Assembly: GCA_003142575.1 (NCBI GenBank)
Contig: PLMS01000114.1
Span: 8,227 to 69,777, forward strand
Direction of reading: 5' to 3'
Origin: Ignavibacteriota bacterium
GTDB lineage: Bacteria > Bacteroidota > Ignavibacteria > UBA10030
Length of the DNA stretch: 61,551 nucleotides
Positions 20,634 to 46,270 of this stretch are shown here, one piece after another (positions within the stretch are counted from its first letter, which is position 1; each line of letters begins with the position of its first letter). Made by a program: the position numbers and the translations under genes. The notes under the pieces are model-generated. The model saw only the letters and a list, made by a program, of their open reading frames with translations, was not told the origin of the DNA and ran no database searches.

Positions 20634-20672
20634 AATCACCCAATCACTCAATCTCCAAATCACAAATCACTC
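20634..20672 (+). repeat. Octamer array (AATCACYC)n, 5 units
   Basis: AATCACCC AATCACTC AATCTCCA AATCACA AATCACTC, between the chaperone stop and the tape measure start. Confidence 0.85.
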
Positions 20673-21271
20673 TTCATTTTTTGCCGGTCTTCGTTCTGCT
20701 TTTTCTTGCATAATAAATAACTGTTTATAAATATCTTCAAGATTCATTTTCTTCACCAGATTGAACTTTGTGCCGTCGTTGCCGGAAAGCTCATAGGCAA
20801 TCCGGTCCTGCGAGCTAACGGGGCAATCTAACTCATCATCGGACTGGTCAAAGATTGCGGCGTACTTACTCCGAAGGCGCCGCTTCTCTGAAAAAAAAGA
20901 TTGACCAGCTCCGAGGCCTCTTTGCGACAATCCTGCTTTCCAAAGAAGATCATCTTCTCAGTTATATCCTTTGCATCAAATTCTTTTTCCTCTTCAACCA
21001 ATAAGGTTGCCATAATCCTTTGCGCGTAACCTTTCGCATAGACCCATGCATTCAACTTCATCGCATCGAAGCCGATTTGTAATAAATTTGTTTTTAAAGA
21101 TGTGGATGTCGGTTCTTGCTGCATGTCGACCATCGCGTTTGCCGATGAAGAAAGCAAAGTTGAATTTTCTTTCAACATCTCAAGAACGATGGGCGCCAGC
21201 AATTCATCCTGATCCAGCGAGAGAGCGAACCGAAACTTCCGTCCGCCTATTTCATAAATCTTTTGTTCCAT
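20667..21271 (-). CDS. Tail assembly chaperone pair (G-like 20828..21271; G-T extension to 20667 by -1 frameshift)
   Basis: Two overlapping minus-strand ORFs just upstream of the tape measure gene. The T8 run (plus-strand A8 at 20891-20898) reads C TTT TTT TTC in the ORF1 frame, giving a T_TTT_TTT slippery heptamer. The -1 frame continues ...FFSEKRRLRSKY... to 20667. Confidence 0.65.
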
Positions 21272-21293
21272 GCGAGCTCCTATATAATTGTAA

Positions 21294-21316
21294 GGGCAAG
21301 GTCACCTCGCCCCTAC
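21294..21316 (-). repeat. GTAGGGGC-hairpin element (reverse orientation)
   Basis: The minus strand reads GTAGGGGCGAGGTGACCTTGCCC. Lies between the tube gene stop and the chaperone start. Confidence 0.7.
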
Positions 21317-21362
21317 CGTTTACCTTTATTTGCGACGCACCTCCAAGGTGCACTGCAAATTG

Positions 21363-21773
21363 TTACGACAGCGTCAGCGTCAACAGATCTGTCTCGCTGC
21401 CTGCGAAGCCGGATCCCAGCAGAATACGTTTCCAATTTTTGGCGACTTCGGTCGGCTGCAACTCCACTATACCCATCACAAGTTTCAGCACCAGCGATTG
21501 CGCCGTATTAATACCTGTGATCTTTACATAAAACGGTGTCGAAGCTGCCTCATATCCGCGAAGTGTTGCCCATGGTGTATCATTCAGATCTTTACAGACG
21601 ATCGTAAAATCGACCGATTTGCCGGTTGAACCGACGCGTCCAGCCGCATCTTCTTCTGTCGGAGTTTTGAATGTGATTTTTGTCTCTTTCATCACGCCCT
21701 GAAGCTCCGTGCCTGGAAAACTATTTGTCGCAGCAAATTCGAACTTGCTGATACCGCCTGGAAATAATATCAT
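21363..21773 (-). CDS. Tail tube-like protein (short paralog)
   Basis: 136 aa, just upstream of the chaperones. The N-terminus MILFPGGISKFEFA...KTPTEEDAAG parallels the 287-aa neighbour. Confidence 0.5.
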   Translation of the reverse strand: MILFPGGISKFEFAATNSFPGTELQGVMKETKITFKTPTEEDAAGRVGSTGKSVDFTIVCKDLNDTPWATLRGYEAASTPFYVKITGINTAQSLVLKLVMGIVELQPTEVAKNWKRILLGSGFAGSETDLLTLTLS

Positions 21774-21816
21774 GACTTGCTCCTTTTAATTTGTGGTTAT
21801 TTATTTGCTTGTCTTC

Positions 21817-21870
21817 TCAATCGTTCAATGACTCAATCATTCAATGACTCAATCGCTAAATCTCTCAATA
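21817..21870 (+). repeat. Octamer array, variant unit TCAATSNY, about 7 units
   Basis: TCAATCGT TCAATGAC TCAATCAT TCAATGAC TCAATCGC TAAATCTC TCAATA. Confidence 0.8.
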
Positions 21871-21873
21871 GTT

Positions 21874-22737
21874 TTACATAGTCAAACTTATCAAATGGCT
21901 TTCGTCCACTGCAACTCCGCTGCCTGTTACCTTCATCGCATTAAATTTCCCGATCTCATTCTCTTCAAATTCAACCTGTGCTAAAACATTATTTACAATA
22001 ATGTTCGGAATGCCGAATCTCATATCATCGAACTTTAAAGTAAGTGCACCTAAGTCCGACACCTGCGCAATTCCCCAACTTGCTATAACGGTTGCAGAGG
22101 GGGAGGATATTGTCAATGTGATATTTACGAGCGTCCAAACTCCAGCTGATAATGCCGGTAAGTATGCATATCCGAAAAGTCCAGTTCCACCTGCTTGAGA
22201 ATAAAAATTTATTTTCAATTGGTTAGCTGGGACATCTATACTACTCTTGACCCAGAAATTCCTTACGGTCCCATTAATATTAATAGGCGTATCGAAGTTC
22301 ACACCACCCAATACACCGACTCCGGCATTATCTGCTATTGTTAGAATTCTCGAATGCGTGCCAACCACACAATCTGTGCTCACATCAACCGTTACACCGG
22401 TGAATGTAAAGCTGGATAATCCTGACTCGCAATCATCTATCAACGCGCCTTGCTTTAATATTGTTGTAAACCGAAAATATAATGGTGTGGCGGCAATCTC
22501 TGCAGCCTTCAGCAATGCATAAGCGGACCCGGCGGCATTATCTACATTCGCACTGCGGATGCTAATATCCATTTGTTTCAGCACAGCACCGATCGTGCCA
22601 TCCGCAAACTCTTCTGTCGGTGTCTTTGGTACAATACTTGTGCCGGCTTTCAAAAGTTTGGTTATTTGAGTTGCAGTTGGAAACGCCGGATCGCTGTCGA
22701 ACTCTACTAAACTAAAACCACCTGGTACTGTTTTCAT
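21874..22737 (-). CDS. Tail tube-like protein (long paralog with about 150-aa insertion)
   Basis: MKTVPGGFSLVEFD...KTPTEEFADG and the C-terminal ...MKVTGSGVAV...LISLTM align with the ends of the 136-aa ORF. The middle part has no counterpart. Confidence 0.5.
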   Translation of the reverse strand: MKTVPGGFSLVEFDSDPAFPTATQITKLLKAGTSIVPKTPTEEFADGTIGAVLKQMDISIRSANVDNAAGSAYALLKAAEIAATPLYFRFTTILKQGALIDDCESGLSSFTFTGVTVDVSTDCVVGTHSRILTIADNAGVGVLGGVNFDTPININGTVRNFWVKSSIDVPANQLKINFYSQAGGTGLFGYAYLPALSAGVWTLVNITLTISSPSATVIASWGIAQVSDLGALTLKFDDMRFGIPNIIVNNVLAQVEFEENEIGKFNAMKVTGSGVAVDESHLISLTM

Positions 22738-22760
22738 ATATTCACCTCGTTTTATTTTCT

Positions 22761-22792
22761 AATCACTAAATCACCCAATCACTCAATCACAC
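22761..22792 (+). repeat. Octamer array, 4 units
   Basis: AATCACTA AATCACCC AATCACTC AATCACAC. Confidence 0.85.
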
Positions 22793-22800: not shown

Positions 22801-23232
22801 TCAATCATACACCGAGAACACAACGGCATACACCACAAGCCCATCGCCGCCATCGATAGGTTCAATCGATTTTAAACCAAACATTACCGGTTCACCATCG
22901 ACCGTCAATACTTTTCCATCGTACAGAGTTCTGATGTCATCTATGATCGAAAGACAATTACGCTGAGCTTTATATTTTCGCAGCAATGTTGCAGCTCCGA
23001 CGATAAGTATAAACTGATGCTCTAATATTCCGCTTCCGCCTGCAGCATCGCGTTCGGTCTCAACAGGCTTTGGCATACGATATGATCCGATCACGAAGGG
23101 AGTAAGTATAATCAATTCCTGAAGAGTCTTTACGCTAAACTCACCTTCCATCACGTCCACGGTTTTTAGACCGGTGACTTTCGCTTTTACATCCGCTATC
23201 AGCGCATCCTGTGTATTTGCAATCGAGATCAT
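22801..23232 (-). CDS. Mu gp37-like (DUF1834-like) head-tail completion protein
   Basis: 143 aa. Position and N-terminus (ALIADVKAKVTGLKTVDVMEGEF) resemble Mu gp37-family proteins from memory. Confidence 0.45.
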   Translation of the reverse strand: MISIANTQDALIADVKAKVTGLKTVDVMEGEFSVKTLQELIILTPFVIGSYRMPKPVETERDAAGGSGILEHQFILIVGAATLLRKYKAQRNCLSIIDDIRTLYDGKVLTVDGEPVMFGLKSIEPIDGGDGLVVYAVVFSVYD

Positions 23233-23786
23233 GACGGCTGCCTAATAATATAATCGCATAGAATTTGTCCCATTGTCTCGCTCGCATCATCTGGGACATA
23301 TGTATAGTTGTAAGGGAATAGCTTCGTTGCATGCGCACCGAATTTCATTCCACGAAGCCCAACATCTTCTTCCGTTCCTGTTTTAAATTGTCCCTTGTGA
23401 ATTCCCCTTGACTTTCTTTTGCGGAAAAATATTTCTTGTCGTTGATAATGTTGTATCTCAGCGCCAAAATTAAGAGCTGCAAGAATTCTCGGATCGGTTA
23501 AATGCTTCCTTCCAACTGCAGATGGCCCGACATTAACACCATCCGGCGTTACTTCATAATCTATCGAGTTCCTTAACGTTCCACTATCTCGCAGCGTCTG
23601 GCCGCCATGTCTTTGCACACGCTGGGATTCCGGCCAGGTATCGGGCCTGCCGCCTTCATCAAAATTCTTTTTCATTTCACTACTCATGAACATCCCGATT
23701 TCTGCGAGGGGTTTCGAAAGATCGCCCGCGCGCGCCAGCATCTCGCCGAGAGTTCTATTGAGATTTGTAAAATTTGAATTACCCAT
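23229..23786 (-). CDS. Phage virion morphogenesis protein (Mu G-like)
   Basis: LGEMLARAGDLSKPLAEIGMFMSSEMKKNFDEGGRPDTWPES is typical of the Mu G / virion-morphogenesis family. 4-nt overlap with the next gene. Confidence 0.6.
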   Translation of the reverse strand: MGNSNFTNLNRTLGEMLARAGDLSKPLAEIGMFMSSEMKKNFDEGGRPDTWPESQRVQRHGGQTLRDSGTLRNSIDYEVTPDGVNVGPSAVGRKHLTDPRILAALNFGAEIQHYQRQEIFFRKRKSRGIHKGQFKTGTEEDVGLRGMKFGAHATKLFPYNYTYVPDDASETMGQILCDYIIRQPS

Positions 23787-23793: not shown

Positions 23794-23833
23794 AATCACC
23801 CAATCACTCAATCGCTCAATCACCAAATCGCAT
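23794..23833 (+). repeat. Octamer array, 5 units
   Basis: AATCACCC AATCACTC AATCGCTC AATCACCA AATCGCAT. Confidence 0.85.
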
Positions 23834-24412: not shown

Positions 24413-24817
24413 ATGAAAAAATCTCTATTCATTCTCGTTCTTTCTTTACTGCTCATCTCTTGCAAAGAGAAAGATAACATTGTCTCGGTTCCGCAAGAAC
24501 CAGATTACAAAGAATATGTCGCGCTCGTTTATCAAAACGGAATCAAAGCTCCAGTCCCAACTATACTCTCCAATACATTCTCAGATACTCTCATTTGGTC
24601 TCGTCAATCTATCGGAACATATCTTGTAACATCAAAGCATGAGTTCACAATAGATAAAACTATAATATTAATCTCAGGTGGAATGGGAGAGGGTGAACTC
24701 ATACAATCCTTTTGGTATGATGGTACTCGTATCATGATTTATACATTTTCTTCAAATGGGACATCGGAAGACAATCTCCTTGCAAATGCTTCTGTAATGA
24801 TTCGTGTTTATAAATAA
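24413..24817 (+). CDS. Small lipoprotein, opposite-strand moron
   Basis: GGAGG lies 5 nt before ATG 24413. MKKSLFILVLSLLLISC is a signal peptide plus lipobox. It is the only plus-strand gene inside the minus-strand late arm. Confidence 0.6.
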   Translation: MKKSLFILVLSLLLISCKEKDNIVSVPQEPDYKEYVALVYQNGIKAPVPTILSNTFSDTLIWSRQSIGTYLVTSKHEFTIDKTIILISGGMGEGELIQSFWYDGTRIMIYTFSSNGTSEDNLLANASVMIRVYK

Positions 24818-24844: not shown

Positions 24845-26554
24845 TTAGGGCGTTGAATAAAGATTATACGTCACGCCATTAATTGTTATCGGTATAATAT
24901 ATACCTGTGTAGTTACTGCACCGCCAGACGATCCGGCGACATAAAGACTTGCTCCAGAATGTGATCCAAAACTTGCACCATGACTCGCTGGTGCAGCCCA
25001 AGATGTCCAAGGTGTGCCGGTTACATATCCTGCACTTGCATGATTGCCCCAACCATAAGCTGTATTCCAATTCGATATTGCAAGATTACTTCCTGTGACC
25101 GCACCTGTGAAAGTTCCCGCACCAGCATTATATACGTCGCCTGCCGCACCATAGAAAGAATAATTGGAAGTTCCACCGATGGCATAGCCATAAACAGCAT
25201 AATTATTCCCACTCCCAGTAGCATGAAAAGCACCTGCATAAGCATTGGGATAACCAGTCGAGACGCCATAAATAGCATTTAAACCATCAACTGTTGTAGA
25301 AGAAAATAATACGCCATCAGTTATTGTTATACCGGGAAAAGATGAAGAGACATTCGATCCAATTCTCACTTTCGATCCACTCGCCTCAAAAAACTCCAAC
25401 TCATTGTCGGAACTTCGCATCTCAACTCGCTTGCCCGAAGCCGCTGTTTGAAATGTAAACCCTGTAAATGTTCCCGCCGTTACTTGCCCTGCTATGATAT
25501 TTCCTGCATATACACCAGAACCGTCCATATAGACCGAGACAATATCCCACGTCGTGCCATTCCAACGGTTCATTTTATACTGACCGGGAACATATGTGTT
25601 AAACCAAAAATCTCCTACTCTCGGCGAGACTGGCGCCGTGCTGCTGTAATATGTCTTATTTCCAAGATCACCACCAGTTATAAAACCAGCGTCATTATTA
25701 AATCCGGAAATATTAATCGAGCCTTGATTGGTCATTACAACCTTACCTTTTATATACACATTGCTTCCGTAAAATCCATAACCGGTTAATGCACCGCCAA
25801 AATCTGCATCAGTGATGCCGTTAAGATTTCCAAATCTTGCTTTTACGACGCAGCCGGTTGCGGGATGTCCGGTCCATGTTACTGTTTGTGCATATGGACT
25901 ATTGGCGCCATTGACTCCATCGACAGCAGTTACTTCGTAATATCCGTTTCCGCTCACGCCGTAATCGAGCGCAACCGTTCCTTTGGGAATTGTCCCGGAA
26001 CCGGTGCCGGCATTGGGTGCTGCAGACCGTGTAAAACTATACGTCTGTGTTGTGGGGTTTGCATTTGCATTTCTCGATGAGTACATAACCGTTCCCCATA
26101 CATCCGCAACGGTGATCGAGGTATTATCAGCGCGACTCATGATCCGCAGACGAACAATATCTCCCTGGGCAAAAACATGTCCGAGAAAATTGGCAAATTC
26201 TTGCACAACTAATGGCGATGATGCGCCTGCAGACGGGACTGTAAAGTCAGCCGCTACCGGACTGCTTGACGGGGAAATAATCTCCGAACCATTCATTGCC
26301 CGCTCTATATCTGTAACAAAAACTTTTACATGCATTTGATCTGCATAGAGGTATCGGAAGTCTCCCTCACCCGCTGCGGATATTCTATAGCCGGTCATTT
26401 GCGAAACATAACTATTGCTGCTTATGCCGCCGCAATTTGTTATCGCATTATTCGCAGAGCTGCCGACAGTTATCATTGAAAAACCGAATTGACCCGCACC
26501 CGGGTCCTTAAATGCTGCCTTGCGTCCTGTTTTTTCAAATATTGGAATTTTCAT
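24845..26554 (-). CDS. Fibre-like Gly/Ser/Thr/Ala-rich structural protein
   Basis: 569 aa. Contains fibre-type segments (GNIIAGQVTAGTFTGFTF, repeated GxxG/YG stretches). Sits in the head-completion region rather than at the tail end. Confidence 0.45.
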   Translation of the reverse strand: MKIPIFEKTGRKAAFKDPGAGQFGFSMITVGSSANNAITNCGGISSNSYVSQMTGYRISAAGEGDFRYLYADQMHVKVFVTDIERAMNGSEIISPSSSPVAADFTVPSAGASSPLVVQEFANFLGHVFAQGDIVRLRIMSRADNTSITVADVWGTVMYSSRNANANPTTQTYSFTRSAAPNAGTGSGTIPKGTVALDYGVSGNGYYEVTAVDGVNGANSPYAQTVTWTGHPATGCVVKARFGNLNGITDADFGGALTGYGFYGSNVYIKGKVVMTNQGSINISGFNNDAGFITGGDLGNKTYYSSTAPVSPRVGDFWFNTYVPGQYKMNRWNGTTWDIVSVYMDGSGVYAGNIIAGQVTAGTFTGFTFQTAASGKRVEMRSSDNELEFFEASGSKVRIGSNVSSSFPGITITDGVLFSSTTVDGLNAIYGVSTGYPNAYAGAFHATGSGNNYAVYGYAIGGTSNYSFYGAAGDVYNAGAGTFTGAVTGSNLAISNWNTAYGWGNHASAGYVTGTPWTSWAAPASHGASFGSHSGASLYVAGSSGGAVTTQVYIIPITINGVTYNLYSTP

Positions 26555-26565: not shown

Positions 26566-26629
26566 AATCACCCAATCACCAATTCACTCAATCTCCCACT
26601 CACCCGATTACTCAATCTCCCAATCACTC
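26566..26629 (+). repeat. Octamer array, 8 units
   Basis: AATCACCC AATCACC AATTCACTC AATCTCCC ACTCACCC GATTACTC AATCTCCC AATCACTC. Confidence 0.85.
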
Positions 26630-28107: not shown

Positions 28108-28114
28108 CGTGTCC
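28061..28114 (+). repeat. GTAGGGGC-hairpin elements, tandem pair (first degenerate)
   Basis: GTAGGAACACAATATATTATGCCC, then GTAGGGACACGATACATCGTGTCC. Confidence 0.7.
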
Positions 28115-28222
28115 GCTTTATCTTTTAGAAATCCGGAGAGGTGTTACTCCTCTCCGGACTTGAAGGAGGCTCACCGTCCCGCCGGCTATTGGGAACCGAC
28201 GAGACGTTCAGCATCCTTAAAA

Positions 28223-28258: not shown

Positions 28259-29257
28259 TTAGCTTGCGCCTGTGCTACCATACGTGAGCTGATGCAAACC
28301 GACACCTGCATTCCATCTTACACGCACGCCATAAATATAGAGATCATGCATGAAGACAAGATCGCTCTGATTCGGATTTGTCTTCTCGACAAATTCCGGA
28401 GCAATACGCGTCTGATGAATGAGCGGCATCAAACCGGCAAATGGCCGGATAAGGAACCATGCCGTTGCGCTTGTGATCTGCGGACTTACAACTAAGTCGG
28501 CTGAATTTTTCCACGGGTTGTTTTGAGTGCTGCCGCTGGCAATAGAAATAAAATCAGCATTCAAACCGGTCCGTGCTTTTTCATCCATTTCCGGACCTAC
28601 AACAAGAATATCTCTTTCGCTGCCGTAGAAGAGCGGGCGTCCTTCACTATCCTTCACACGTCCCAAAGCGGCTTTGGCAATTGCATAACTGCCTCCGGTT
28701 GCGAAACTCAATGCGGCTACAGCTGTATTTGATCCACTCGCATGATTGGCCGAATAAAGAGTATAACCGTCGTAACTTTTTATAGTAGTGAATCCACCGT
28801 TGAGTAATCCGAATATAAGTTCATCCGGATGCAGCCGAACGGACGTTCCCATAGCAGCCATCATCATTCCATAGACACCGTATTGATCGTCTTCAATTGC
28901 AGCGCGTTCGACCTGCACGGTGCTTTCGAATGTTTTATTTCTAATAGTATAATTATTTGCTGCTAATTTTTTAATCTGGCGTTCGCCGATGAACTCGCGC
29001 AGTTTCGGCCACGCGCCAAGCCATGCATATCCTTGGTCCAATGTTGTCGATGGAATTTCCATCGCAATTTTTTGCCATTGCGGCTGGGCTGCAGAGAGCG
29101 CTTGATTAAAAATCGTGTTCCATGATTTATAAAGTCCCTGGATGTTTGCAGGATTAATAACTATTCCCGCTGCAAGCATTCCGACCGCGCCCGCCGGATG
29201 CGCAAAGAATGCGACAAACGCAAGCACGATCAAAGTCCATTTCAAAATTCGTTTCAT
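28259..29257 (-). CDS. Major capsid protein, Mu gpT family
   Basis: NIQGLYKSWNTIFNQAL...YAWLGAWPKLREFIGERQIKKLAANNYTIRNKTFESTVQVERAAIEDDQYGVY closely follows the Mu gpT pattern. AAGGAG lies 7 nt before ATG 29257. That ATG adds a hydrophobic 26-aa extension; Met27 is an alternative start. Confidence 0.85.
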   Translation of the reverse strand: MKRILKWTLIVLAFVAFFAHPAGAVGMLAAGIVINPANIQGLYKSWNTIFNQALSAAQPQWQKIAMEIPSTTLDQGYAWLGAWPKLREFIGERQIKKLAANNYTIRNKTFESTVQVERAAIEDDQYGVYGMMMAAMGTSVRLHPDELIFGLLNGGFTTIKSYDGYTLYSANHASGSNTAVAALSFATGGSYAIAKAALGRVKDSEGRPLFYGSERDILVVGPEMDEKARTGLNADFISIASGSTQNNPWKNSADLVVSPQITSATAWFLIRPFAGLMPLIHQTRIAPEFVEKTNPNQSDLVFMHDLYIYGVRVRWNAGVGLHQLTYGSTGAS

Positions 29258-29297: not shown

Positions 29298-29361
29298 CAT
29301 CACTCAATCGCCCAGTCACCCAATCTCCTCCCCTTATTTCTAAGGGGAGGGAAGGGTGGGG
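29298..29361 (+). repeat. Octamer array (4 units) merging into TCTCCCCC-type hairpin copy C with a G-quadruplex motif
   Basis: CATCACTC AATCGCCC AGTCACCC AATCTCCT, then CTCCCC-TTATTTCTAA-GGGGAG. GGGGAGGGAAGGGTGGGG lies at 29344-29361. Confidence 0.8.
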
Positions 29362-32856: not shown

Positions 32857-32965
32857 CCTTATGATCGGTTTACCGAATATCTAAAGCTTATGTCGTTCCC
32901 GCATAAGCGGGAGTCTTATTCAAATACTGCTACAACGTACGATTTGGTATTTTAAAAGTCAATAG

Positions 32966-34526: not shown

Positions 34527-34528
34527 AG

Positions 34529-34580
34529 ATAGAAGATTTTCTATTTTTTACTTGACAGTCGATAGAAGGTTTTCTATCTT
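34529..34580 (+). promoter_or_regulatory. Immunity region: two 16-bp operator palindromes flanking/overlapping the early promoter
   Basis: ATAGAAGATTTTCTAT (34529-34544) and ATAGAAGGTTTTCTAT (34562-34577), centres 33 bp apart. TTGACA (34552-34557), 17-nt spacer, TATCTT (34575-34580). Confidence 0.6.
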
Positions 34581-34618
34581 CCTATAGGTTCACTTTAGAA
34601 CACTCTACAAGGAAGTAT

Positions 34619-35848: not shown

Positions 35849-37752
35849 TAGATAATAATATAGAAGTTATAACCCATAACTCATCACTCGAAACTCGTCA
35901 CTCGGAACTTTCTATTCCAACCGTATCAATTTCTAAGTTGACGTCCGAAATTATTTCTCGCACGAATGCGATCGTCTCTCTCGTTAACGAAAAAATAACT
36001 ATCGAGCAAGTTGCTTCCGAAACGGGTATCGCTCTGCCGACAATGTACCGGCATCTTACGAAACTGCGTAAACTTTTTGAGCTTCCTTTGCGAGAGAAAC
36101 TTTTTATGATCTCGAACCATCCGCAGCTTCACCAGGCAATTGAATATTTATTAACACGCCGCGACCGTACCGATGAAGGTTCATTGAGAAGTGCGAAAGA
36201 CCTCAGTGTCGTGGTTCCGACCAACGGCGAATTACTTTCTGTCGAAGACTTTTTGAAGTCACTTTATCCACGCGAAGGTGTAAACGCCTCCAGTTGTTAT
36301 CGTGCGCTCCGCGCTCGATGTATAAATCGCCAAATCATCAAATCTCCAAATCACCAAATCTCTCAATCACCCAATCACGAAATCGCCTCTCTCGAAGATC
36401 TTCCCAGCGAACAGAGCATCACCCGCTTCCTTCGTCAATGGCGTGAAGAATACATTTCCGTCCGCCGCGGCCGCGCGCGCAAGAATGATTTTGAATCTCA
36501 GCAGCAACCGTACGTCACGCGCGATGTCACGCAGTACCTGCCAGGACAGCTCTGGATCGGCGATCATACCGAGCTCGATTTTATGGTCCTGAATGAAAAA
36601 GGAGTTCTCGACCGACGATGGATTTCTTCTTTTATCGACATCCGCACCGGACTCATTATAGGGTATCACTTATCCTGGCAGCCGAACTCGCAGACAGTTT
36701 CGCTTGCATATCGCAATGGCGTTCTGGGTTCGCAGATAAAAGCATTCAACGGTTCGGCATACGTGCAGATCCCGCTCGTCAATGTGCCGGAAGAAATTAT
36801 GATCGATAACGGTAAAGATTATCGCTCCAATTACACGCAGCGCATTTTCGGCAAGATAGATTTCGAAGACACCGCACGACTCAGTATCCAGCGCATGACA
36901 AAACTTCATTACACGCTTCCGTATCACGGTCAATCGAAAGCACAGCAGGAGAGATGGTATAAGACAATTCAAACGATGCTAAAGTATTTGCCGGGGTACA
37001 AGGGGAATCGTTACCAGAATAAACCGGACTCTCTTAAAGATGAAATGAAGCAAGGTGCATGCTTATCGGTCGACAAATTTGACGCGCTCGTTGCTATAGG
37101 CATCAATACTTATAACAACCGCGTGCACCGCTCGCTCAACGAACAATCGCCGATACAATGTTATCTCTCTAATCAACCACATCAGCGCGCGATCGATATG
37201 CGTGTGCTTGACTTCCTGATGCTGAAAGTGCAAGGCAGAAAAATCCGGCGCTGCCAGGTTGCACTCAAGAACGCAGATTACTACAGCGATGCGCTGATGC
37301 CCTATAACGACAAGCCGTGCGACGTGTATTACGATCCGAACGATATGGGTATGGTCTCTATTTATGTGGACGGAGAATTTGCCGCAGTCGCAGTGAGCAA
37401 AGAAATGATCGGGCAGACGGAACGCGGCTGGGAAAAAATCCTGCACGATCGCACACGCGGCGAAAAAGGAATGCAGAAGGAGCTTCAAACGTATCGTAAA
37501 GGCATCTCGAATGCTGATGCAAAGAGGATGCTCCTGGAAGGCGAGCTGATGAATGCTTCACCGGTTTCCCGCGAGCTGCTCATGACCAGTGCACCGACAA
37601 TCACTATGATCACCGGCATCGAACAGCAAGCCGCGCAGAATAAAAATGAATTGGATAGTACAGCAGCTGACATTGAAAAACAAAAAGAAGCACGCAAGCG
37701 CGCGAAACAATCGCCGCTCTCGCTTGCAATGGTGAACGATCGGATAAAATAA
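35845..37752 (+). CDS. MuA-type DDE transposase
   Basis: N-terminal HTH segments. rve-type core with D (LWIGDHTELDF), D (IMIDNGKDYRS) and E (HGQSKAQQERWY). Mu-transposase-like C-terminal region. Followed by the MuB-like ATPase. Confidence 0.85.
   Translation: MIDNNIEVITHNSSLETRHSELSIPTVSISKLTSEIISRTNAIVSLVNEKITIEQVASETGIALPTMYRHLTKLRKLFELPLREKLFMISNHPQLHQAIEYLLTRRDRTDEGSLRSAKDLSVVVPTNGELLSVEDFLKSLYPREGVNASSCYRALRARCINRQIIKSPNHQISQSPNHEIASLEDLPSEQSITRFLRQWREEYISVRRGRARKNDFESQQQPYVTRDVTQYLPGQLWIGDHTELDFMVLNEKGVLDRRWISSFIDIRTGLIIGYHLSWQPNSQTVSLAYRNGVLGSQIKAFNGSAYVQIPLVNVPEEIMIDNGKDYRSNYTQRIFGKIDFEDTARLSIQRMTKLHYTLPYHGQSKAQQERWYKTIQTMLKYLPGYKGNRYQNKPDSLKDEMKQGACLSVDKFDALVAIGINTYNNRVHRSLNEQSPIQCYLSNQPHQRAIDMRVLDFLMLKVQGRKIRRCQVALKNADYYSDALMPYNDKPCDVYYDPNDMGMVSIYVDGEFAAVAVSKEMIGQTERGWEKILHDRTRGEKGMQKELQTYRKGISNADAKRMLLEGELMNASPVSRELLMTSAPTITMITGIEQQAAQNKNELDSTAADIEKQKEARKRAKQSPLSLAMVNDRIK
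36325..36388 (+). repeat. Octamer array, 8 in-phase units, inside the transposase CDS
   Basis: AATCGCCA AATCATCA AATCTCCA AATCACCA AATCTCTC AATCACCC AATCACGA AATCGCCT. Translated as ..NRQIIKSPNHQISQSPNHEIAS... Confidence 0.85.
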
Positions 37753-37944: not shown

Positions 37945-38895
37945 ATGGCACCAACAGTTAACAAGTTCTCACTTTTAGAAGACGACGATCCGGGCCGCAA
38001 GAGCAACGAAGAAATTAAATCCACGCTTCGCGGTCTCATTGAATCGAAAGAGCTCACACTCCGCGACATTGGAAAATTTATCGGCTATTCTACTCCAACC
38101 GTATCTCAAATCCTGAGCGATTCTTACCCGGGCGAAAAAGAAAAGATGGACGAACTTCTCGCCCGTTTCTATCGCAACTGGGTAGCGAGTAATCTTATCG
38201 TCGACACTTCCGTCGTAAAACAGATACACGGCACGATGATGCTCGCGTGGAAAAGAAAACTCATCTGCGAGATCACCGGACACTTCGGCTGCGGAAAATC
38301 AAAATCGTCCGCGCGATTCGTTGCGCTCAATCCGGAAATTTCAAGCTATGTCGAGCTCACCAGCACGACATCGCCTTCGTCGCTTCTCCATCGCATCGGT
38401 GAATCTCTGAATATCGAAAGCCAGATGTCGGGCAGCCAGGACGATCGGCTCTTCGCAATTATCCGCAACCTGCAGCGCAAGCCGCGCCAGCTCGTCATCG
38501 ACGAGGCGGATAATCTTAAAGCGCGCACGCTCGCAATCCTGAAAGACATACACGGCGGTGAAGAAAAGGGGAGATGCTCTATTGTATTGATCGGCACGAG
38601 CCGGCTGAACAAGCTCCTGCAGGATCCGGTGCTCGGCTATCTCAAGCGGCGAATCAGTTTGAAATGCGAAGTCGGCGACATTGGATTCGATGAAGCAAAA
38701 AAGATCGCTGATTTCTGGCCGCACAAATTGGAGCGGGATGAATTGAAAAAAGCATGGGATTGGTCGCTGCGGAAATTCGGCGTCGCAACACTCGTGGTAT
38801 TAATGGCACGCGCTTACGATGTCATGCAGATGCACGAAGAAAAGAAAATCGATGATGACTGCATCCTGATTGCACAAGGAATGGTAGCGGATTAA
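37945..38895 (+). CDS. MuB-like AAA+ transposition ATPase
   Basis: N-terminal HTH (LRDIGKFIGYSTPTVSQIL). Walker A GHFGCGKSKS. Walker B LVIDEADNL. Directly follows the transposase. Confidence 0.75.
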   Translation: MAPTVNKFSLLEDDDPGRKSNEEIKSTLRGLIESKELTLRDIGKFIGYSTPTVSQILSDSYPGEKEKMDELLARFYRNWVASNLIVDTSVVKQIHGTMMLAWKRKLICEITGHFGCGKSKSSARFVALNPEISSYVELTSTTSPSSLLHRIGESLNIESQMSGSQDDRLFAIIRNLQRKPRQLVIDEADNLKARTLAILKDIHGGEEKGRCSIVLIGTSRLNKLLQDPVLGYLKRRISLKCEVGDIGFDEAKKIADFWPHKLERDELKKAWDWSLRKFGVATLVVLMARAYDVMQMHEEKKIDDDCILIAQGMVAD

Positions 38896-39181: not shown

Positions 39182-39715
39182 ATGAATCGCACAATCACCA
39201 AATCTCGCAATCTCTTAATCCAAAGAATCCACGTTCTCAAGCGGGATCTCTCGCTCGATGATGAAACGTACCGCGTTATCCTCCGATCCATTTGCGGCAA
39301 GGATTCCTGCGCCAACATCGACGATGAATATCTTAATCTTATCAAGCAGCAGATGGAGAATATGCTTGATCGCATGCGCTCCGGATCCAACTTAAAATTG
39401 AAGAACGCACAGGAACACAAGAAGATTGCGAAGCTCGGCTACCTGCTCGGATGGAACTGGAATGACATTGCCGGATTCTGTTTCAAAGAAACAAAAAAGA
39501 AGTCGACACAGAGCTGCACCGCAGCCGAGCTCGGGAAAATAATAAACGGCATGATCGCGCTGATCAACGATGGACTCGCAAAAGGCACATTGAAATTCGC
39601 GCATCCGGACTTGCAAGCGTTTCTAAAATATTCTCAATCGCCCAGTCGCACAATCACTAAATCACAAATCACCCAATCACAAAATCGACAATCACCTAAT
39701 CACTCAATTTCTTAA
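39182..39715 (+). CDS. GemA/gp16-like (DUF1018) protein
   Basis: RNLLIQRIHVLKRDLSLDDETYRVILRSICGKDSCANIDDEYLNLI matches the GemA pattern. Both termini are encoded by octamer arrays. Confidence 0.6.
   Translation: MNRTITKSRNLLIQRIHVLKRDLSLDDETYRVILRSICGKDSCANIDDEYLNLIKQQMENMLDRMRSGSNLKLKNAQEHKKIAKLGYLLGWNWNDIAGFCFKETKKKSTQSCTAAELGKIINGMIALINDGLAKGTLKFAHPDLQAFLKYSQSPSRTITKSQITQSQNRQSPNHSIS
39185..39224 (+). repeat. Octamer array, 5 units (codes the GemA-like N-terminus)
   Basis: AATCGCAC AATCACCA AATCTCGC AATCTCTT AATCCAAA. Confidence 0.75.
39636..39713 (+). repeat. Octamer array, 10 units (codes the GemA-like C-terminus)
   Basis: AATCGCCC AGTCGCAC AATCACTA AATCACA AATCACCC AATCACAA AATCGAC AATCACCT AATCACTC AATTTCTT. 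Confidence 0.85.
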
Positions 39716-43548: not shown

Positions 43549-43583
43549 CCAAATCACCAATCACTAACCGAAGGAGAATCACC

Positions 43584-43937
43584 ATGGCATTCAAATCAGA
43601 TGACGACCGGCAAGTCGTGATAGACATGATCAAAGCCGGACAAAGCATGGCGGAAATTATAGTTTTAGATGTCTGCAATCAAGCAGACGTTTATAATTTG
43701 CGTCACATTTTAAAAGCCGATGGAGTTGTAATTAAAAAGGCTTCAAAGTCGACAGGCGATGAAACTTCCTCGAAGGTAACAAAAGCAAAAAACGATTTAA
43801 AAAATACAAAGCAGAATTGTCCCGCTTGGCTGGAAGGACTTCTCCGCGAACAAGAACGATTGCGGGAACATCTTCGCAGGATCGATGCACTGGCTGCAAT
43901 GTACGACGATAAAATACCATTGAACTTGCATCATTGA
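43584..43937 (+). CDS. Hypothetical early/middle protein (possible HTH)
   Basis: 117 aa with AAGGAG upstream. VVIDMIKAGQSMAEII is HTH-like. Confidence 0.35.
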   Translation: MAFKSDDDRQVVIDMIKAGQSMAEIIVLDVCNQADVYNLRHILKADGVVIKKASKSTGDETSSKVTKAKNDLKNTKQNCPAWLEGLLREQERLREHLRRIDALAAMYDDKIPLNLHH

Positions 43938-43941
43938 CCAT

Positions 43942-44307
43942 ATGAAAATAATTTCTTTTGCCTGGACAACGCCTGCACTCATTGCCGGCGCGAAGACCTG
44001 CACTCGCCGCGATTGGAAACCGGAGTATGCGATACGATTCCATAAAGGAGATATTTGTCTCGCTTACGATAAGCAACCGCGGTTTAAAGGAAAGCCCGTT
44101 GCGAAAATTCGCCTGACGGTGGATCCGGTTTTTGAAAGCACGAAGCTCGCTCCGGATTCCGACTATGCAGCCGAAGGGTTTGCCTGGTTGAAAGCGCACG
44201 ATATAAAAGTAATCGGAAAATACGAAGTCGACATGCTCTGGAAAGTCTGGCGCATGGGAGACTTCGATAAATGGGTTGTGAGATTTGAACTTTTGGAGGT
44301 TCTATGA
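43942..44307 (+). CDS. ASCH-like domain protein
   Basis: MKIISFAWTTPALIAGAKTCTRRDWKPEY follows the ASCH N-terminal pattern (..G.KT.TRR.W). Confidence 0.55.
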   Translation: MKIISFAWTTPALIAGAKTCTRRDWKPEYAIRFHKGDICLAYDKQPRFKGKPVAKIRLTVDPVFESTKLAPDSDYAAEGFAWLKAHDIKVIGKYEVDMLWKVWRMGDFDKWVVRFELLEVL

Positions 44308-45992
44308 AATTAATTCATCTTGGGTACGAAATCGGGACCGGCAACGCGGTCGGCGTTCCTCTTTCTCATCTTATCGTTACCGGACTCACACAGCTCTCCG
44401 GAAAAACAACGACGCTCGAGGCGCTTATCACTCGCAGCGATCTTAAAGCGATCGTCTTTCGCACTAAGCCCGGCGAGCGCGGGTTTGCAAACGCCCAGCG
44501 CATTCCTCCTTATTTTAAAGAGCGATCCGATTGGCAATACGTCTCCGCGCTCCTGGAGGCAACACTGAAAGAAAAAATGCGGTTCGAGCGTTCATGGATT
44601 ATGACCGCCTGCAAGGGAACAAGTTCTCTCCTGGAAGTGAAAAGAAATATCGAAACAGCGCTTGCCAATCCAAAAACGAATTCGCTCAGCCGCAGCGTGT
44701 ACACAACGCTCGATGAATATTTAAATTTAATCCTTCCTCAGATCTCCGTAACGACATTCAGCAACACACTCGAACTACAAACCGGCATCAATGTCATGGA
44801 CCTTGAACGGCTGCGCGAGGAGCTGCAATCGCTCATCATCCGAAGTGTGCTCGAAATCGTGCTGAAGGAAATGCACGACGTTATAGTTGTAATTCCCGAG
44901 GCGTGGAAATTCATGCCGCAGGAGCGAGGCAATCCATGCAAGCAACTCGCAGAAGAGTTTATCCGCCAGGGCGCGACAAATCATAACTACCTCTGGATCG
45001 ATTCACAGGATATGAGCGGCGTCGACAAGACGCCTTTGAAACAGGTTTCAACCTGGATACTCGGACTTCAATCCGAACGAAATGAAGTACGGCATACTTT
45101 AGATCAGATGCCTATCCCCAAAAAACTGCGGCCGGCCGAAGATGAAATCATGACATTAAAGCGCGGACATTTTTATGCATGTACTCCGCAGTGGAGCAAA
45201 AAGATTTATGTGCAGCCATCCTGGTTGGATGATGAAATGGCGAAGGCGATCGCAATTGGCGAAAAGAGTGTCGATGAAATTCAACGTCCTCTTCTGGCAA
45301 CTTTGCCTCCGCTGCCGTCCATGCCAAAACAGATTCCGGATGAAAAGCTTATCGCGCTCGAACAACTGCAGAAAGAAATCCAATCCATTCGAAAGGATTT
45401 CTTCGGACAGGTGCAGCAGCTGACAGATTATGTCCGCAAGGTTTCGGAAAGCATCGCAACTGTTCAGCCGATGTCGCTGCCATTGCAAGCGATGGATGCT
45501 GATCATATCGCACTCGAGGTGATGCAGAAACTGCCGAACAAAGAGATTCTTGTCGCCGAGATAACCAAGGCAGTTCTTGCTCAGATTCCTAAAGGCGGGA
45601 CCGGCGGCGCCGTGCAATATGAAGTCGCGCCGATAGCTGCTCTGCAGAAGAAATTCCTGCAGGAAGCGAAAGAAAGATTGGTGCAGCTTATCAAAGCTCT
45701 TCCGGAAGATCAAAAGAAAGCGCTCCTCTTTGTGGAGAGCCTTGCAAAGGGAGTGGAGCATGGTCAGATCTGCGAGAAATGCTTCGGATGGAAGACGAGC
45801 GGAGATTACAGCACGAAGGTAAAAAATATGCGACTCGCCTTGAAAGCGGCCGGACTGCTGCGCGTCGATAATAAAGCGCGATCGTTCCCGTATCTGAAAG
45901 AAAAGATACGATCTGAAATCGCGCTGCACGGCGCTACCGACGAAGAAATAGATCAGCTTTACAATCACATCCTGGCGGAAGTACTAAAATGA
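44304..45992 (+). CDS. HerA/DUF87-like P-loop ATPase with atypical Walker motifs
   Basis: TGLTQLSGKTTTLEAL (P-loop), VIVVIPEAWKF (Walker B position with P instead of D), NYLWIDSQDMSG. The C-terminal roughly 200 aa are helical. ATGA overlap with the ASCH gene. Confidence 0.5.
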   Translation: MKLIHLGYEIGTGNAVGVPLSHLIVTGLTQLSGKTTTLEALITRSDLKAIVFRTKPGERGFANAQRIPPYFKERSDWQYVSALLEATLKEKMRFERSWIMTACKGTSSLLEVKRNIETALANPKTNSLSRSVYTTLDEYLNLILPQISVTTFSNTLELQTGINVMDLERLREELQSLIIRSVLEIVLKEMHDVIVVIPEAWKFMPQERGNPCKQLAEEFIRQGATNHNYLWIDSQDMSGVDKTPLKQVSTWILGLQSERNEVRHTLDQMPIPKKLRPAEDEIMTLKRGHFYACTPQWSKKIYVQPSWLDDEMAKAIAIGEKSVDEIQRPLLATLPPLPSMPKQIPDEKLIALEQLQKEIQSIRKDFFGQVQQLTDYVRKVSESIATVQPMSLPLQAMDADHIALEVMQKLPNKEILVAEITKAVLAQIPKGGTGGAVQYEVAPIAALQKKFLQEAKERLVQLIKALPEDQKKALLFVESLAKGVEHGQICEKCFGWKTSGDYSTKVKNMRLALKAAGLLRVDNKARSFPYLKEKIRSEIALHGATDEEIDQLYNHILAEVLK

Positions 45993-46222
45993 CAGAAATA
46001 CAAAACGCGGGGCTAACTAAACTCTTTGCCGATATGCCTCTCGAAGAAAATTATTTATTTGAAGAGGTTAAAGGGCTGATTCGCACAGCGTTTGAACTCG
46101 GCTTAAAACTTGGCAGCAAGGGAAAAAAGAAGAAACATTTCAAGCGTCCTGCAGGACATCCGGAAGGATGCCTATGCGAGATCTGTTTTGCGCCCGTGCA
46201 CGAAGCCGCGAGGAAATTATGA
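45989..46222 (+). CDS. Small basic Cys-containing protein
   Basis: 77 aa. KGKKKKHFKRPAGHPEGCLCEICFAPVH. Confidence 0.35.
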   Translation: MTEIQNAGLTKLFADMPLEENYLFEEVKGLIRTAFELGLKLGSKGKKKKHFKRPAGHPEGCLCEICFAPVHEAARKL

Positions 46223-46239
46223 TTCCTCTTCATTCGACC

Positions 46240-46270
46240 AATCACCAAATCACTAAATCGGAAATCGCAC
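46240..46270 (+). repeat. Octamer array, 4 units
   Basis: AATCACCA AATCACTA AATCGGA AATCGCAC, running into ATG 46272. Confidence 0.75.

Follow-up and report, generated by a model that had tools for sequence, protein, structure and literature searches.

Octamer arrays in a Mu-like prophage of an Ignavibacteriota bacterium: recent amplification from Shine–Dalgarno or single-unit seeds

Tandem arrays of an 8-nt unit (consensus AATCACYC) lie on one strand of a Mu-like prophage, and comparison with an orthologous prophage shows that they were recently amplified from Shine–Dalgarno (SD) sequences or single-unit seeds. The reading that we tentatively prefer is that of amplified extended-SD repeats acting on mRNA, with the strand-locking as a by-product of coding constraints. 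The prophage lies in a window of 61,551 nucleotides (the whole stretch of DNA analyzed) and is bounded by imperfect terminal inverted repeats (14724–14753 and 55778–55807). Its late arm on the minus strand encodes lysis functions, protease I, capsid protein gpT, and tail proteins, and its early arm on the plus strand encodes MuA, MuB, GemA, terminase, portal, and Mu F.

Octamer arrays in the two prophage arms

All eleven arrays that a sequence-only reading had listed were present, each within the prophage (about 14.7–55.8 kb) and all in the same orientation as claimed (plus strand, 11 of 11; binomial p = 0.001). They were correctly described as neither CRISPR nor palindromic. The features are as follows:

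14724–55807, Mu-like prophage of ~41 kb with divergent arms, holding all arrays
20634–20672, plus strand, 5-unit array, 11 nt before the ATG of a 762-aa putative tape-measure gene (18334–20622)
21817–21870, plus strand, variant array with a 16-nt alternation of AATGACTC and AATCATTC, 43 nt before the ATG of gene 21363–21773
22761–22792, plus strand, 4-unit array, 23 nt before the ATG of gene 21874–22737 and followed by the SD GAGGTGA
23794–23833, plus strand, 5-unit array, 7 nt before the ATG of a gpG/tail_S-like gene (23229–23786)
26566–26629, plus strand, 8-unit array, 11 nt before the ATG of a 569-aa gene (24845–26554)
29298–29329, plus strand, degenerate 4-unit array with a hairpin on one side and the A-rich leader of capsid gene gpT (28259–29257) on the other, 40 nt from its ATG
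36325–36388, plus strand, 8-unit array, translated as a 21-aa insert (NRQIIKSPNHQISQSPNHEIA) in a MuA-like transposase (35845–37752)
39185–39224, plus strand, 5-unit array, translated from codon 2 of GemA (39182–39715)
39636–39713, plus strand, ~10-unit array with some internal 7-nt steps, encoding the GemA C-terminal tail
43552–43566, plus strand, weak intergenic 2-unit array with 7-nt spacing, 17 nt before the ATG at 43584
46240–46270, plus strand, 4-unit array, 1 nt short of the ATG of a winged-helix-like gene (46272–46595; 107 aa)
52836–52874, plus strand, twelfth period-8 array, (CGACTCAT)n, inside ORF 52494–53216 and absent from the earlier list

The late-arm arrays are intercistronic in six of six cases, with a stop codon or hairpin on one side and the next ribosome-binding site on the other, and in the late mRNA they read (GnGAUU)n, 7–43 nt before the ATG. 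Their distances of 11, 43, 23, 7, 11, and 40 nt bear out the claim that each minus-arm array sits 5' of a start codon. As to the genes themselves, the capsid (gpT) and gpG/tail_S-like assignments held, whereas the proposed tube paralogs and fibre-like gene were not confirmed. In the early mRNA, the arrays read (AAUCnC)n, and three lie within ORFs, one in frame in the hypervariable linker of the MuA-like transposase and two at the N- and C-termini of GemA, in agreement with the claim that three arrays are translated. The final unit of the second GemA array (AATTTCTT) lies 12 nt before the next ATG (39726), and the winged-helix-like gene has no SD. The twelfth array is conserved in ortholog L548 and may be a distant member of the octamer family.

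Two consecutive AATCACYC units (≤2 mismatches) were matched 23 times, all 23 on the plus strand, against 0.21 matches expected from shuffles. The pattern AATCN4AATC gave 29 plus-strand matches inside the prophage and two scattered minus-strand matches in the whole window. The unit logo, built from 59 units, is A-A-T-C-n-C-n-n with G almost absent, and the plus strand of the arrays (472 nt) contains 36% C and 4% G. The AATC positions are nearly invariant, position 5 is variable (A 63%, G 19%, T 17%), and mismatches cluster at positions 5, 7, and 8, by more than 10-fold (chi-square p = 9e-19). Both prophage arms share this logo of a fixed AATC.C and three free positions, although their RNAs differ. 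TRF revealed higher-order periods of 16 and 24 nt, and neighboring units are seldom identical. Ten independent metagenome copies displayed no copy-number polymorphism of the arrays, Rfam returned no match for them, and no predicted promoter or terminator site coincided with them, except that one weak promoter-like match (9/12) reaches the border of array 26566 with its first hexamer.

The window's host portions (1–14.7 kb and 55.9–61.5 kb) are array-free, as had been claimed for the host flank, but 20 kb of host DNA beyond the window ends contained a single small array of this family (L551, 14400–14450). The arrays are ~10-fold enriched in phage versus host, rather than phage-exclusive. A scan of 1.4 Mb of unrelated bacterial DNA yielded no period-8 array.

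Array turnover in relatives and occurrence in other genomes

In a related host, the orthologous prophage, which has only two arrays, occupies the same site of the chromosome (flanks 92–95% identical). Positions of window arrays are taken in the ortholog by an ordinary SD (GGAGGTGA) or one unit alone, and the window arrays are therefore recent local amplifications. At the junction homologous to 26566–26629, ortholog L334 reads GGAGGTGAAAAGATAAGATG and the window ...GGGTGATTGAAAAGATAAAATG, with the SD GGAGGTGA aligning exactly with the last array unit. At junction 22761–22792, L334 has one GAGTGAAT unit, and an array of the same variant type as 21817–21870 occupies the orthologous junction (L334, 11889–11937). 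Neither L326 (79% capsid identity) nor L334 has array 29298–29329 at the corresponding junction, and ortholog L548 has a normal AGGAG leader at 46240–46270. Regarding the translated arrays, L337 has a shorter version of the MuA array at the same place, array 39185–39224 of GemA is expanded compared to L337 and L548, and array 39636–39713 is shorter in L337, with only a possible single unit (CAATCTGA) in L548. The GemA and MuA arrays thus display stepwise growth, from no clear array in L548 over ~4 units in L337 to 8–10 units in the window. Most arrays are also missing from phages with 59–79% capsid identity.

Arrays of the same unit adjoin start codons in unrelated phages and bacteria, either solitary or as inverted pairs; the AATCAC core recurs in several phyla, and similar arrays precede unrelated chromosomal genes there. 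AATCAC arrays are 3–6 times commoner than a control octamer of equal composition. In unrelated phages, (GGGTGATT)n stops 3–4 nt short of an ATG that has no other SD; at intercistronic junctions behind portal and capsid genes, further arrays precede a canonical SD. Both senses are usually paired in cis in other phages, as G-arm/C-arm hairpins immediately before start codons. Every genome uses a unit dialect of its own; by inspection, the AATC.C core is near-constant in unrelated phages and the other positions vary. A crude count of orientation relative to the downstream ORF gave 43 G-rich and 35 C-rich cases in other genomes, and hence there is no universal SD-like sense.

Candidate roles of the arrays

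According to the preferred reading, the arrays would act, where active at all, on polycistronic mRNA. Each late array would be a tandem amplification of an extended SD segment whose GGUGAU(U) is predicted to pair with GAUCACC of the 16S rRNA 3' tail. Occupying the spacer from the upstream stop codon or hairpin to the next ribosome-binding site, it would offer 30S subunits a number of weak landing sites, either immediately before the SD or doubling as the SD, and its closed frames (TGA) would keep most stray ribosomes from reaching the next cistron. In genes 23229–23786 and 24845–26554, the terminal array unit (GGGUGAUU in the former) is the only SD-like sequence, and its pairing with the 16S tail, calculated with an assumed host 16S 3' end, amounts to −10.6 kcal/mol, which equals the strength of the canonical SDs of neighboring genes. 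In the G-rich sense, at least two frames are closed in all eleven arrays and all three in six of them, mostly by TGA; for the late arrays, the corresponding fractions are 6/6 and 4/6. The C-rich sense leaves all three frames open in 7 of 11 arrays. Since the G-rich sense is laden with stops, arrays within plus-arm ORFs can only be of the C-rich sense, and strand-locking need not imply a strand-specific DNA function. It could instead result from two independent filters, in that plus-arm ORFs could read only the C-rich sense, and only the G-rich, SD-like sense would be harmless or useful in minus-arm leaders; array growth and spread through slippage and through template switching that preserves orientation may contribute. 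The early sense (AAUCnC)n is G-poor, has few stops, and is predicted to be nearly structure-free (about 0 kcal/mol, compared to −4 to −15 for random phage segments), and would therefore be tolerated in disordered linkers, termini, and short leaders. Ribosome binding, a benefit for expression, and the mode of array spread are what we infer.

Recurrence of the core in several phyla would be accounted for by the 16S tail, which is conserved universally. Support for the earlier proposal of standby or ribosome-loading sites is confined to the late arm, where arrays fill spacers and two genes have no SD-like element besides the terminal unit; the proposal leaves the early-arm arrays unexplained. Five arrays are anti-SD-like in early mRNAs, two of them in leaders where an SD-like sequence would help. 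Genome-specific dialects are not predicted by an invariant rRNA partner and, like the mixed orientation in other genomes, count against the SD reading, and the variable position 5, central to the pairing with the 16S tail, together with the fixed AATC helix end, fits better with recognition by a protein.

Such recognition is the basis of a possible but doubtful alternative, in which a small oligomerising DNA-binding protein would occupy each octamer with one dimer. The resulting lattice would provide distributed operators or roadblocks for prophage silencing, or a scaffold for transposition or packaging, with coding constraints alone setting the orientation. Its logic is akin to that of omega, ParG, pESBL ParB, and MetJ, and the silencing to that of L5 stoperators. 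Omega binds 7–10 contiguous WATCACW heptads (PMC9499535), which have the AATCAC core in common with the window unit, and pESBL ParB binds octamer repeats, seven direct or 4 + 4 opposed, with one protein per octamer (PMC7602700). Contiguous 7–8-bp repeats in runs of 4–10, direct or opposed, are a known ribbon-helix-helix (RHH) binding architecture. The shared logo in arms with different RNAs, the dialects and inverted array pairs of other phages, and arrays forced into coding sequence where the early arm is without spacers also argue for a lattice. The earlier lattice proposal agrees with the 8-bp period, with how the unit is conserved, and with precedents in the literature, but no binder was found: about 30 small prophage ORFs yielded no RHH, omega, ParG, MetJ, Arc, or CopG domain and no ParA partner. 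The winged-helix gene directly follows 46240–46270, and weakly similar genes flank the largest arrays in L208, L220, and L223; however, L337 and L548 keep this gene without an array at that position. Furthermore, generic Mu-like head genes were the only protein families found in both the window and the array-rich viral loci, the late-arm gene content of the orthologous prophage is largely that of the window and its early genes partly so, yet its arrays are few, and a lattice is at odds with the arrays before unrelated chromosomal genes and with their position in stop-to-RBS spacers, away from predicted promoters.

It is unlikely that the arrays are a self-propagating repeat without a dedicated function. 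Short seeds (GGTGA, which is SD-like, or AAT-CGN codons) would have grown into arrays through slippage, and these would have spread by polarity-keeping ectopic template switching or gene conversion, and persisted where harmless, i.e., in spacers, disordered linkers, and protein termini. The fast turnover among relatives, the single-unit seeds at homologous positions, the higher-order periods, which point to block duplication, and the homogeneous dialect within each genome are consistent with this, as is the GemA N-terminus, which has inserted arrays in the window and a hairpin element in L548. The coding filter would account for which sense survives where. However, neutral decay does not predict mismatches focused on positions 5, 7, and 8, similarly in unrelated phages, and the scarcity of identical neighbors, the invariant copy number in the metagenome copies, and the excess over the control octamer also speak against it. 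Moreover, a single lineage would have undergone eleven parallel expansions of one unit and none of other units.

With all arrays on one DNA strand and divergent transcription of the arms, early (AAUCnC)n could pair in trans with late (GnGAUU)n in any register. Acting as an early-to-late switch, such pairing could mask leaders (late ones, or early C/A-rich ones) or generate substrates for RNase III. We regard this as quite improbable, even though it is the only model in which absolute strand-locking would itself be functional, late–early array duplexes are predicted at −45 to −65 kcal/mol (random early-arm segments, −15 ± 7, minimum −41), and the cis hairpins of other phages make the two senses look like natural partners. 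The complementarity follows automatically from arm geometry, variable positions did not co-vary between arms in the cis pairs inspected, and relatives have arrays confined to one arm (L334 with L548; L337).

Recombination linkers, i.e., short shared homology at gene borders that would promote module exchange or insertion between related phages, are a very unlikely role, and this earlier suggestion was mostly unsupported. One cassette fits it:

43584–46222, 2.7-kb cassette with genes of 117, 121, 562, and 77 aa, flanked by arrays 43552–43566 (left) and 46240–46270 (right)

It is bracketed by near-identical 19-nt array pieces (CCAAATCACCAATCACTAA and CCAATCACCAAATCACTAA) and missing from L548, and its 562-aa gene is 84% identical to a gene at a different position in L338. 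The gene-by-gene identity to the ortholog is strongly mosaic (32% to 97%). However, nucleotide similarity is uninterrupted across arrays 20634, 21817, and 26566, the breakpoints fall within genes (about 21975, 23232, 27099, and 29211) and none at arrays, and the junctions of the cassette relatives in L338 are without arrays.

Scarcely credible are Rho-loading (rut) sites that would cut off antisense or read-in transcripts crossing the late arm and make the early operon polar: the C-rich, G-poor plus-strand RNA with its MFE of about 0 would suit them, and they would account for strand-locking and for a need for intergenic late-arm copies, but this reading draws on composition alone, most arrays are short for a rut site (30–40 nt), and other phages have the C-rich sense in sense mRNAs directly before start codons.

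Whichever role applies, the arrays belong to a wider family of start-codon-associated repeats in phages, which has apparently been undescribed so far.

Octamer arrays in a Mu-like prophage

All eleven octamer arrays put forward in the sequence-only reading could be recovered, nine of them as period-8 repeats by Tandem Repeats Finder and two (29298-29329 and 39185-39224) by pattern search and direct reading. Their common orientation was equally clear: all 23 matches to two AATCACYC units (at most 2 mismatches) lay on the plus strand, with 0.21 expected, and AATCN4AATC matched 29 times on the plus strand within the prophage, compared to two scattered minus-strand matches across the window. The 59 units phased by the AATC anchor, with internal units unfiltered, gave the logo A(57) A(55) T(59) C(55) n C(54) n n, in which the conservation of positions 1-4 is partly circular because of this anchoring and C6 is free of it. 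G accounted for 19 of 472 unit bases, and mismatches to the consensus clustered at unit positions 5, 7, and 8 (chi-square p = 9e-19). Arrays comprise 4-10 contiguous units, except for the weak array 43552-43566 with two units only, and 21817-21870 is a 16-nt alternating variant (GAGTCATT/GAATGATT). An additional, twelfth period-8 array on the plus strand, (CGACTCAT)n at 52836-52874, lies inside ORF 52494-53216; it carries GACTC (GANTC) in each unit and is kept in the orthologous prophage (L548 17094-17140). Close to it, ORF 51287-52489 (400 aa) contains coding tandem repeats of 120 nt (x2.1; 51807-52055) and 36 nt (x2.3; 52345-52427).

The host parts of the window are free of arrays, as the sequence-only reading had stated. 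The 20 kb past the window ends held one small array of the same family (14400-14450 of L551, the host chromosome beyond the window), some 3.3 kb past the right end, at the 5' terminus of an NTP-transferase gene of the host; its units read AATGATC AATGATC AATCCCAA AATCATTT AATCACCA AATCGCAG in the sense of the gene. Across 80 unrelated genomes, uvrB neighbourhoods totalling 1.4 Mb contained no period-8 array of at least four units. The prophage is thus strongly enriched in arrays, and the array family is not strictly viral.

The prophage is Mu-like by Pfam, with the following assignments.

Genes of the prophage assigned by Pfam
30361-31542, minus strand, protease I
28259-29257, minus strand, capsid gpT
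minus strand, gp36-like gene
23229-23786, minus strand, gpG/tail_S-like gene
35845-37752, plus strand, MuA-like transposase
37945-38895, plus strand, MuB-like ATPase
39182-39715, plus strand, GemA
plus strand, DUF1804 small terminase, 550-aa terminase-like ORF, and Dam-like methylase
53274-54692, plus strand, Mu portal (Mu F also on the plus strand)

The minus-strand late arm and the plus-strand early arm diverge at 34527-34618, with an HTH repressor-like gene on one side and a Ner/Cro-like gene on the other. The transposase genes thus lie mid-element between divergent arms, a layout shared by the related phages L338, L339, and L546. The prophage is delimited by a terminal inverted repeat of 30 nt that is imperfect (14724-14753 and 55778-55807), and TAATGTGAT-type sites at both ends (14736, 14758, 55666, and 55718) are putative MuA binding sites. 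The host flank comprises PAS, two-component, secretin, and uvrB genes, the last with 73% identity to a Bacteroidota MAG and 66% to Kapaibacterium.

Several further elements of the prophage were recorded. A strong intrinsic terminator with a 20-bp stem followed by a T run (32814-32859, minus strand) divides the repressor-side genes from the lysis/late operon, and a plus-strand lipoprotein-like ORF of 134 aa (24413-24817), a candidate moron with a homologue in L334, the late arm of the orthologous prophage, sits inside the minus-strand late arm. Just past the capsid gene, a non-coding element of about 100 nt (28110-28215, minus strand; …GGATGCTGAACG…GTGAGCCTCCTTCAAGTCCGG…GGATTTCTAAA) is kept in L334 and the related phage L326; a structured RNA downstream of gpT is conceivable here, and Rfam gave no match. 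The related phage L338 contains a tRNA-like sequence (…GTAACTCAGTTGGTAGAGTAGC…GGTTCGAATCC…) immediately after its capsid gene (1048-1227). Hairpins of a second repeat family, REP-like and of the GTAG type (TTTTGTAGGGGCAC...GTGCCC), occupy at least eight gene junctions and are also present in L326, L334, and L546.

Approximate positions of the REP-like hairpins
37890, 38900, 40080, 40490, 40515, 47140, 49360, early arm
21300, late arm

Several known element types were compared with the octamer arrays. CRISPR had been dismissed from the outset, and rightly so: the units are contiguous 8-mers without spacers, compared to repeats of 23-50 nt with unique spacers of similar length. Palindromic REP or MITE elements were ruled out by direct inspection. 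A phase-variable simple-sequence contingency locus was rejected, given that the units are degenerate and that all arrays are free of indels in ten near-identical metagenome copies (at least 99.96% identity over the aligned parts); what looks like a truncation or frameshift in one copy (L237) is a scaffold gap, i.e., a run of N. As decoys of MuA end sites or of the enhancer the arrays were likewise rejected, sharing only GTGAT with the TAATGTGAT-type terminal repeats, and comparison by eye with the IHF, DnaA, CRP, and Bacteroidetes promoter consensus sequences showed mismatches at key positions. No promoter- or intrinsic-terminator-like site coincided with the arrays except for a weak promoter-like match (9/12) bordering the array that starts at 26566 (hexamer at 26567), scored against a sigma-70-like consensus that may not be the host's. 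Rfam 15 gave no match at gathering thresholds for the whole window and nothing relevant at E ≤ 1 for 18-48 kb.

Array position, coding potential, and RNA properties

Nine arrays stop 1-43 nt short of an ATG and one begins at codon 2. The described location 5' of late-arm start codons applies to all six arrays of that arm, which are intercistronic and end 11, 43, 23, 7, 11, and 40 nt before the ATG. At these junctions the stop codon is followed by the array, in some cases with a CCCC...GGGG hairpin in between, and then by SD and ATG, in some cases after an A-rich leader. Units in the G-rich sense, (GnGAUU)n, which is the sense of late mRNAs, are complementary to the 16S tail. For 23229-23786 and 24845-26554, there is no SD besides the terminal unit GGGUGAUU, whose pairing with a generic 16S tail (-10.6 kcal/mol) equals that of the canonical SDs of neighbouring genes.

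In the early arm, where mRNAs carry the C-rich sense (AAUCnC)n, the arrays 43552-43566 and 46240-46270 form short leaders, and the three arrays reported as translated are indeed coding. Array 36325-36388 is an in-frame insert of 21 aa in a hypervariable linker of MuA, and 39185-39224 and 39636-39713 encode N-terminal and C-terminal extensions of GemA, respectively. In the G-rich sense, every array has two or more frames interrupted by stop codons, mostly TGA, and 6 of the 11 (four of the six late arrays) have all three interrupted; in the C-rich sense, seven of the 11 leave all three frames open. Arrays within plus-arm ORFs are therefore restricted to the observed orientation. Early-arm arrays are also nearly structure-free, with MFE of 0 to -1 kcal/mol, whereas random phage segments reach -4 to -15. 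At position 5, the share of the non-SD-like variant did not differ significantly between late and early arms (3/26 vs. 6/27).

Comparison with the orthologous prophage and other genomes

Among related phages, those with 59-79% capsid identity lack the window's arrays; at the capsid junction of L326, hairpin and leader are kept and the array is missing. The closest relative by MuA (83%) and GemA (69%), L337, has shorter arrays at both coding positions. An orthologous prophage (L334 and L548, its late and early arms) occupies the same chromosomal site in a related host, with flanks of 95% (left, 13055-14734) and 92% identity (right, 55790-56117, including uvrB). Its phage genes share 70-87% nucleotide identity and a mosaic 32-97% protein identity with those of the window; its capsid has been replaced (32% aa identity). 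As this is a randomly transposing phage, the shared insertion site points to long vertical residence with internal mosaic replacement.

Apart from the GACTC-containing repeat, just two arrays are present in the ortholog. They lie in the late arm and read in the mRNA as in the window; the early arm has none. One of the two belongs to the variant type and occupies the junction that corresponds to 21817-21870. At the place of the eight units 26566-26629, the ortholog shows a hairpin and then GGAGGTGAAAAGATAAGATG, and the last unit and leader of the window array, GGGTGATTGAAAAGATAAAATG, are homologous to the ortholog's SD. The four units at 22761-22792 correspond to a single GAGTGAAT, and the winged-helix gene, preceded by a normal AGGAG in the ortholog, has an array abutting its ATG and no SD in the window. 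Taken together, these comparisons indicate that short seeds, several being the SD itself, were recently and locally amplified into arrays step by step. Alignment of orthologous junctions, as proposed in the sequence-only reading, thus revealed variation in unit number; most arrays were not conserved in place. A CTCCCCC...GGGGGAG hairpin element was seen inside the ORF of the GemA N-terminus at L548 3460-3530, so that intergenic-type elements also land in a GemA coding terminus.

Two-unit pattern matches in genome and viral collections were near chance in number among the matches listed, although many of them fell within genuine arrays, and only array-level features of these matches were used. 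At least three units of the exact core were found in 17 of 108 viral loci, compared to 5 of 97 for a composition-matched control octamer, and several separate arrays in 18 of 108 vs. 3 of 97; CAATCAYC x2 was left out as a control because it overlaps the real unit in phase. Members of the family are found in Acidobacteriota, Bacteroidota, and Burkholderiales and also in unrelated phages that have HK97-type capsids or SPP1-type portals, and two architectures recur. The first is the solitary array in an intercistronic spacer: for example, (GGGTGATT)n follows portal and capsid genes in four unrelated viral loci (L154, L160, L164, and L228) and ends 3-4 nt before an ATG that has no other SD, and in a further locus, L137, C-rich sense arrays ending in AATTTCTT are followed by 3-4 nt and an ATG. 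The second is the inverted pair, always in the order G-arm, C-arm, just 5' of a start codon. Both the variant unit (GAGTCATT/GAATGATT) and the terminal unit AATTTCTT of the window recur in unrelated viral contigs. Each genome has its own dialect at unit positions 5, 7, and 8, with AATC.C constant, and the downstream genes are mutually unrelated. By a crude count of orientation relative to the nearest downstream ORF in these other genomes, the G-rich sense scored 43 and the C-rich sense 35. Searches of the paper library by exact repeat sequence, keywords, and octamer-repeat terms yielded no description of such arrays, which apparently belong to a broader, so far undescribed family of gene-junction octamer repeats.

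Possible functions of the arrays

The arrays are real, statistically robust, phage-enriched, and recently amplified. What they do is a matter of graded probability, and our tentative preference is for SD amplification at the mRNA level, a possibility we hold short of confidence. Late arrays would then be amplified extended-SD units serving as ribosome landing or standby sites, and their TGA would at the same time close two or more frames, all three in four of the six. This mRNA-level reading of the late arm draws on array position, SD homology with the ortholog, genes whose sole SD is the last unit, and the occurrence of similar arrays in other phages. The earlier proposal of standby ribosome loading hence became the best-supported reading there, and the C-rich sense leaders of the early arm and of other phages speak against extending it further. 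Strand-locking could result from two independent filters, i.e., ORF compatibility in the plus arm and a preference for SD-like over anti-SD-like sense in minus-arm leaders; agreement of both on one absolute strand would be as probable as a coin toss, and orientation-preserving spread may add to it.

Standby sites are unstructured sequences upstream of the SD that aid ribosome recruitment. C/A-rich translational enhancers, e.g., ACA motifs, are likewise unstructured elements just 5' of the SD that increase ribosome recruitment (PMC3879156). Complementarity between G/U-rich and C/A-rich sequences could silence such sites; known examples of either type are neither periodic octamer arrays nor repeated genome-wide. 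The closest conceptual relatives, by analogy, are the SAS/ESAS of Cluster K mycobacteriophages, phage-specific repeats of unknown function at the RBS position with an SD core (PMC3203893). Like the arrays, they are short, scattered through the genome, nearly absent from the host, and placed a few nt from start codons, with an SD-complementary core and sometimes preceded by inverted repeats with variable spacer. In contrast to the tandem 8-nt arrays, SAS are single 13-bp copies of fixed orientation to the gene and are confined to non-structural genes (PMC3203893), which separates the window arrays from SAS/ESAS membership. Furthermore, the sense of the arrays relative to genes flips between arms, three of them are translated, and the segment of the rRNA tail that their core pairs with is GAUCACC, as opposed to CCUCC.

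ParG and the MetJ metboxes exemplify another principle, in which contiguous, non-palindromic repeats of 7-8 bp, in direct or opposed runs of 4-10, are read by one dimer per unit. Such repeats are a binding architecture of small dimeric proteins (PMC9499535, PMC7602700): omega of pSM19035 binds 7-10 WATCACW heptads in direct or inverted order (PMC9499535), and pESBL ParB binds octamers in sets of seven direct or 4+4 opposed copies (PMC7602700). All arrays except 43552-43566 have the contiguous 7-8-bp units, at least four per site, of the omega, ParG, and pESBL-ParB repeats, and the unit shares its AATCAC core with the omega heptad. Three facts tell against pure ribosome pairing, namely the variability at position 5, C-rich leaders in early-arm genes as well as in other phages, and the genome dialects, and they make a DNA-binding lattice of this kind a serious competitor. 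However, the omega period is 7 bp rather than 8, the arrays are all direct in the window genome, and omega-type systems have one to six sites at promoters, whereas the eleven arrays are dispersed over stop-to-RBS spacers and ORFs. Omega-type systems also encode an RHH protein and usually ParA, and no cognate protein was found: Pfam searches of about 30 small prophage ORFs at E ≤ 1 gave no RHH_1, Omega_Repress, ParG, MetJ, Arc, CopG, or ParA domain, remote homologues being possible, and all-against-all BLAST for a binder common to array-rich viral loci gave only the Mu-like protease and the terminase. The winged-helix gene lost weight as a candidate binder because its homologues in L337 and L548 lack an array. 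We regard the lattice as rather unlikely.

Cluster A stoperators, bound by the immunity repressor (L5 gp71), are single asymmetric 13-bp sites whose orientation follows transcription (PMC9283540, PMC6550527). They resemble the arrays in being numerous asymmetric sites spread over the two arms of a temperate phage genome, largely in small gaps between genes, and by this analogy a silencing or roadblock role is conceivable. The arrays differ as tandem octamers of one DNA orientation, so that their orientation relative to transcription is opposite in the two arms. The operators at 34527-34618 are palindromes unrelated to the arrays.

Non-functional, selfish spread of the repeats fits part of the data, and we consider it unlikely. 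The same partial fit applies to the remaining rivals. Early-late RNA pairing would draw on array duplexes predicted to reach -65 kcal/mol (controls, -15 ± 7); for repeats on one strand, divergent transcription produces such complementarity by geometry. The suggestion of recombination linkers was mostly not borne out, as similarity breakpoints between window and ortholog are not at arrays; however, a cassette at 43584-46222 is bracketed by near-identical 19-nt direct repeats built of array units. This cassette, missing in the ortholog, comprises four genes (117-aa HTH-like, 121-aa, 562-aa with a weak AAA_10 match, and 77-aa); part of it occurs elsewhere in L338, with 84% identity for the 562-aa gene. 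Rut sites would agree with C-rich, G-poor, unstructured sequence, and only three arrays reach their length of about 60-80 nt.

In the boldest version, which we rate as a long shot, the arrays would be one case of a widespread, undescribed class of phage and bacterial gene-junction elements, (GnGAUU)n and (AAUCnC)n, mimicking the SD and the 16S 3' tail. The two senses would be paired in cis in most genomes and split here, so that early and late mRNAs cross-regulate in trans by leader masking or RNase III; alternatively, an octamer-reading protein would coat both arms.

The two orthologous prophages, one array-rich and one array-poor, provide a ready-made natural experiment. If the arrays act on translation, phages would tune or couple cistrons by turning an extended SD into periodic landing pads, a device that is simple, evolvable, and overlooked by gene callers and RBS models. 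If they bind a protein, repeat reading of the omega/ParG type would be extended from plasmid centromeres to genome-wide phage regulation. As the unit recurs near starts in unrelated phages and several phyla without a description in the paper library searched, a systematic survey could define a new class of gene-junction elements, comparable to the SAS/ESAS sites of mycobacteriophages.
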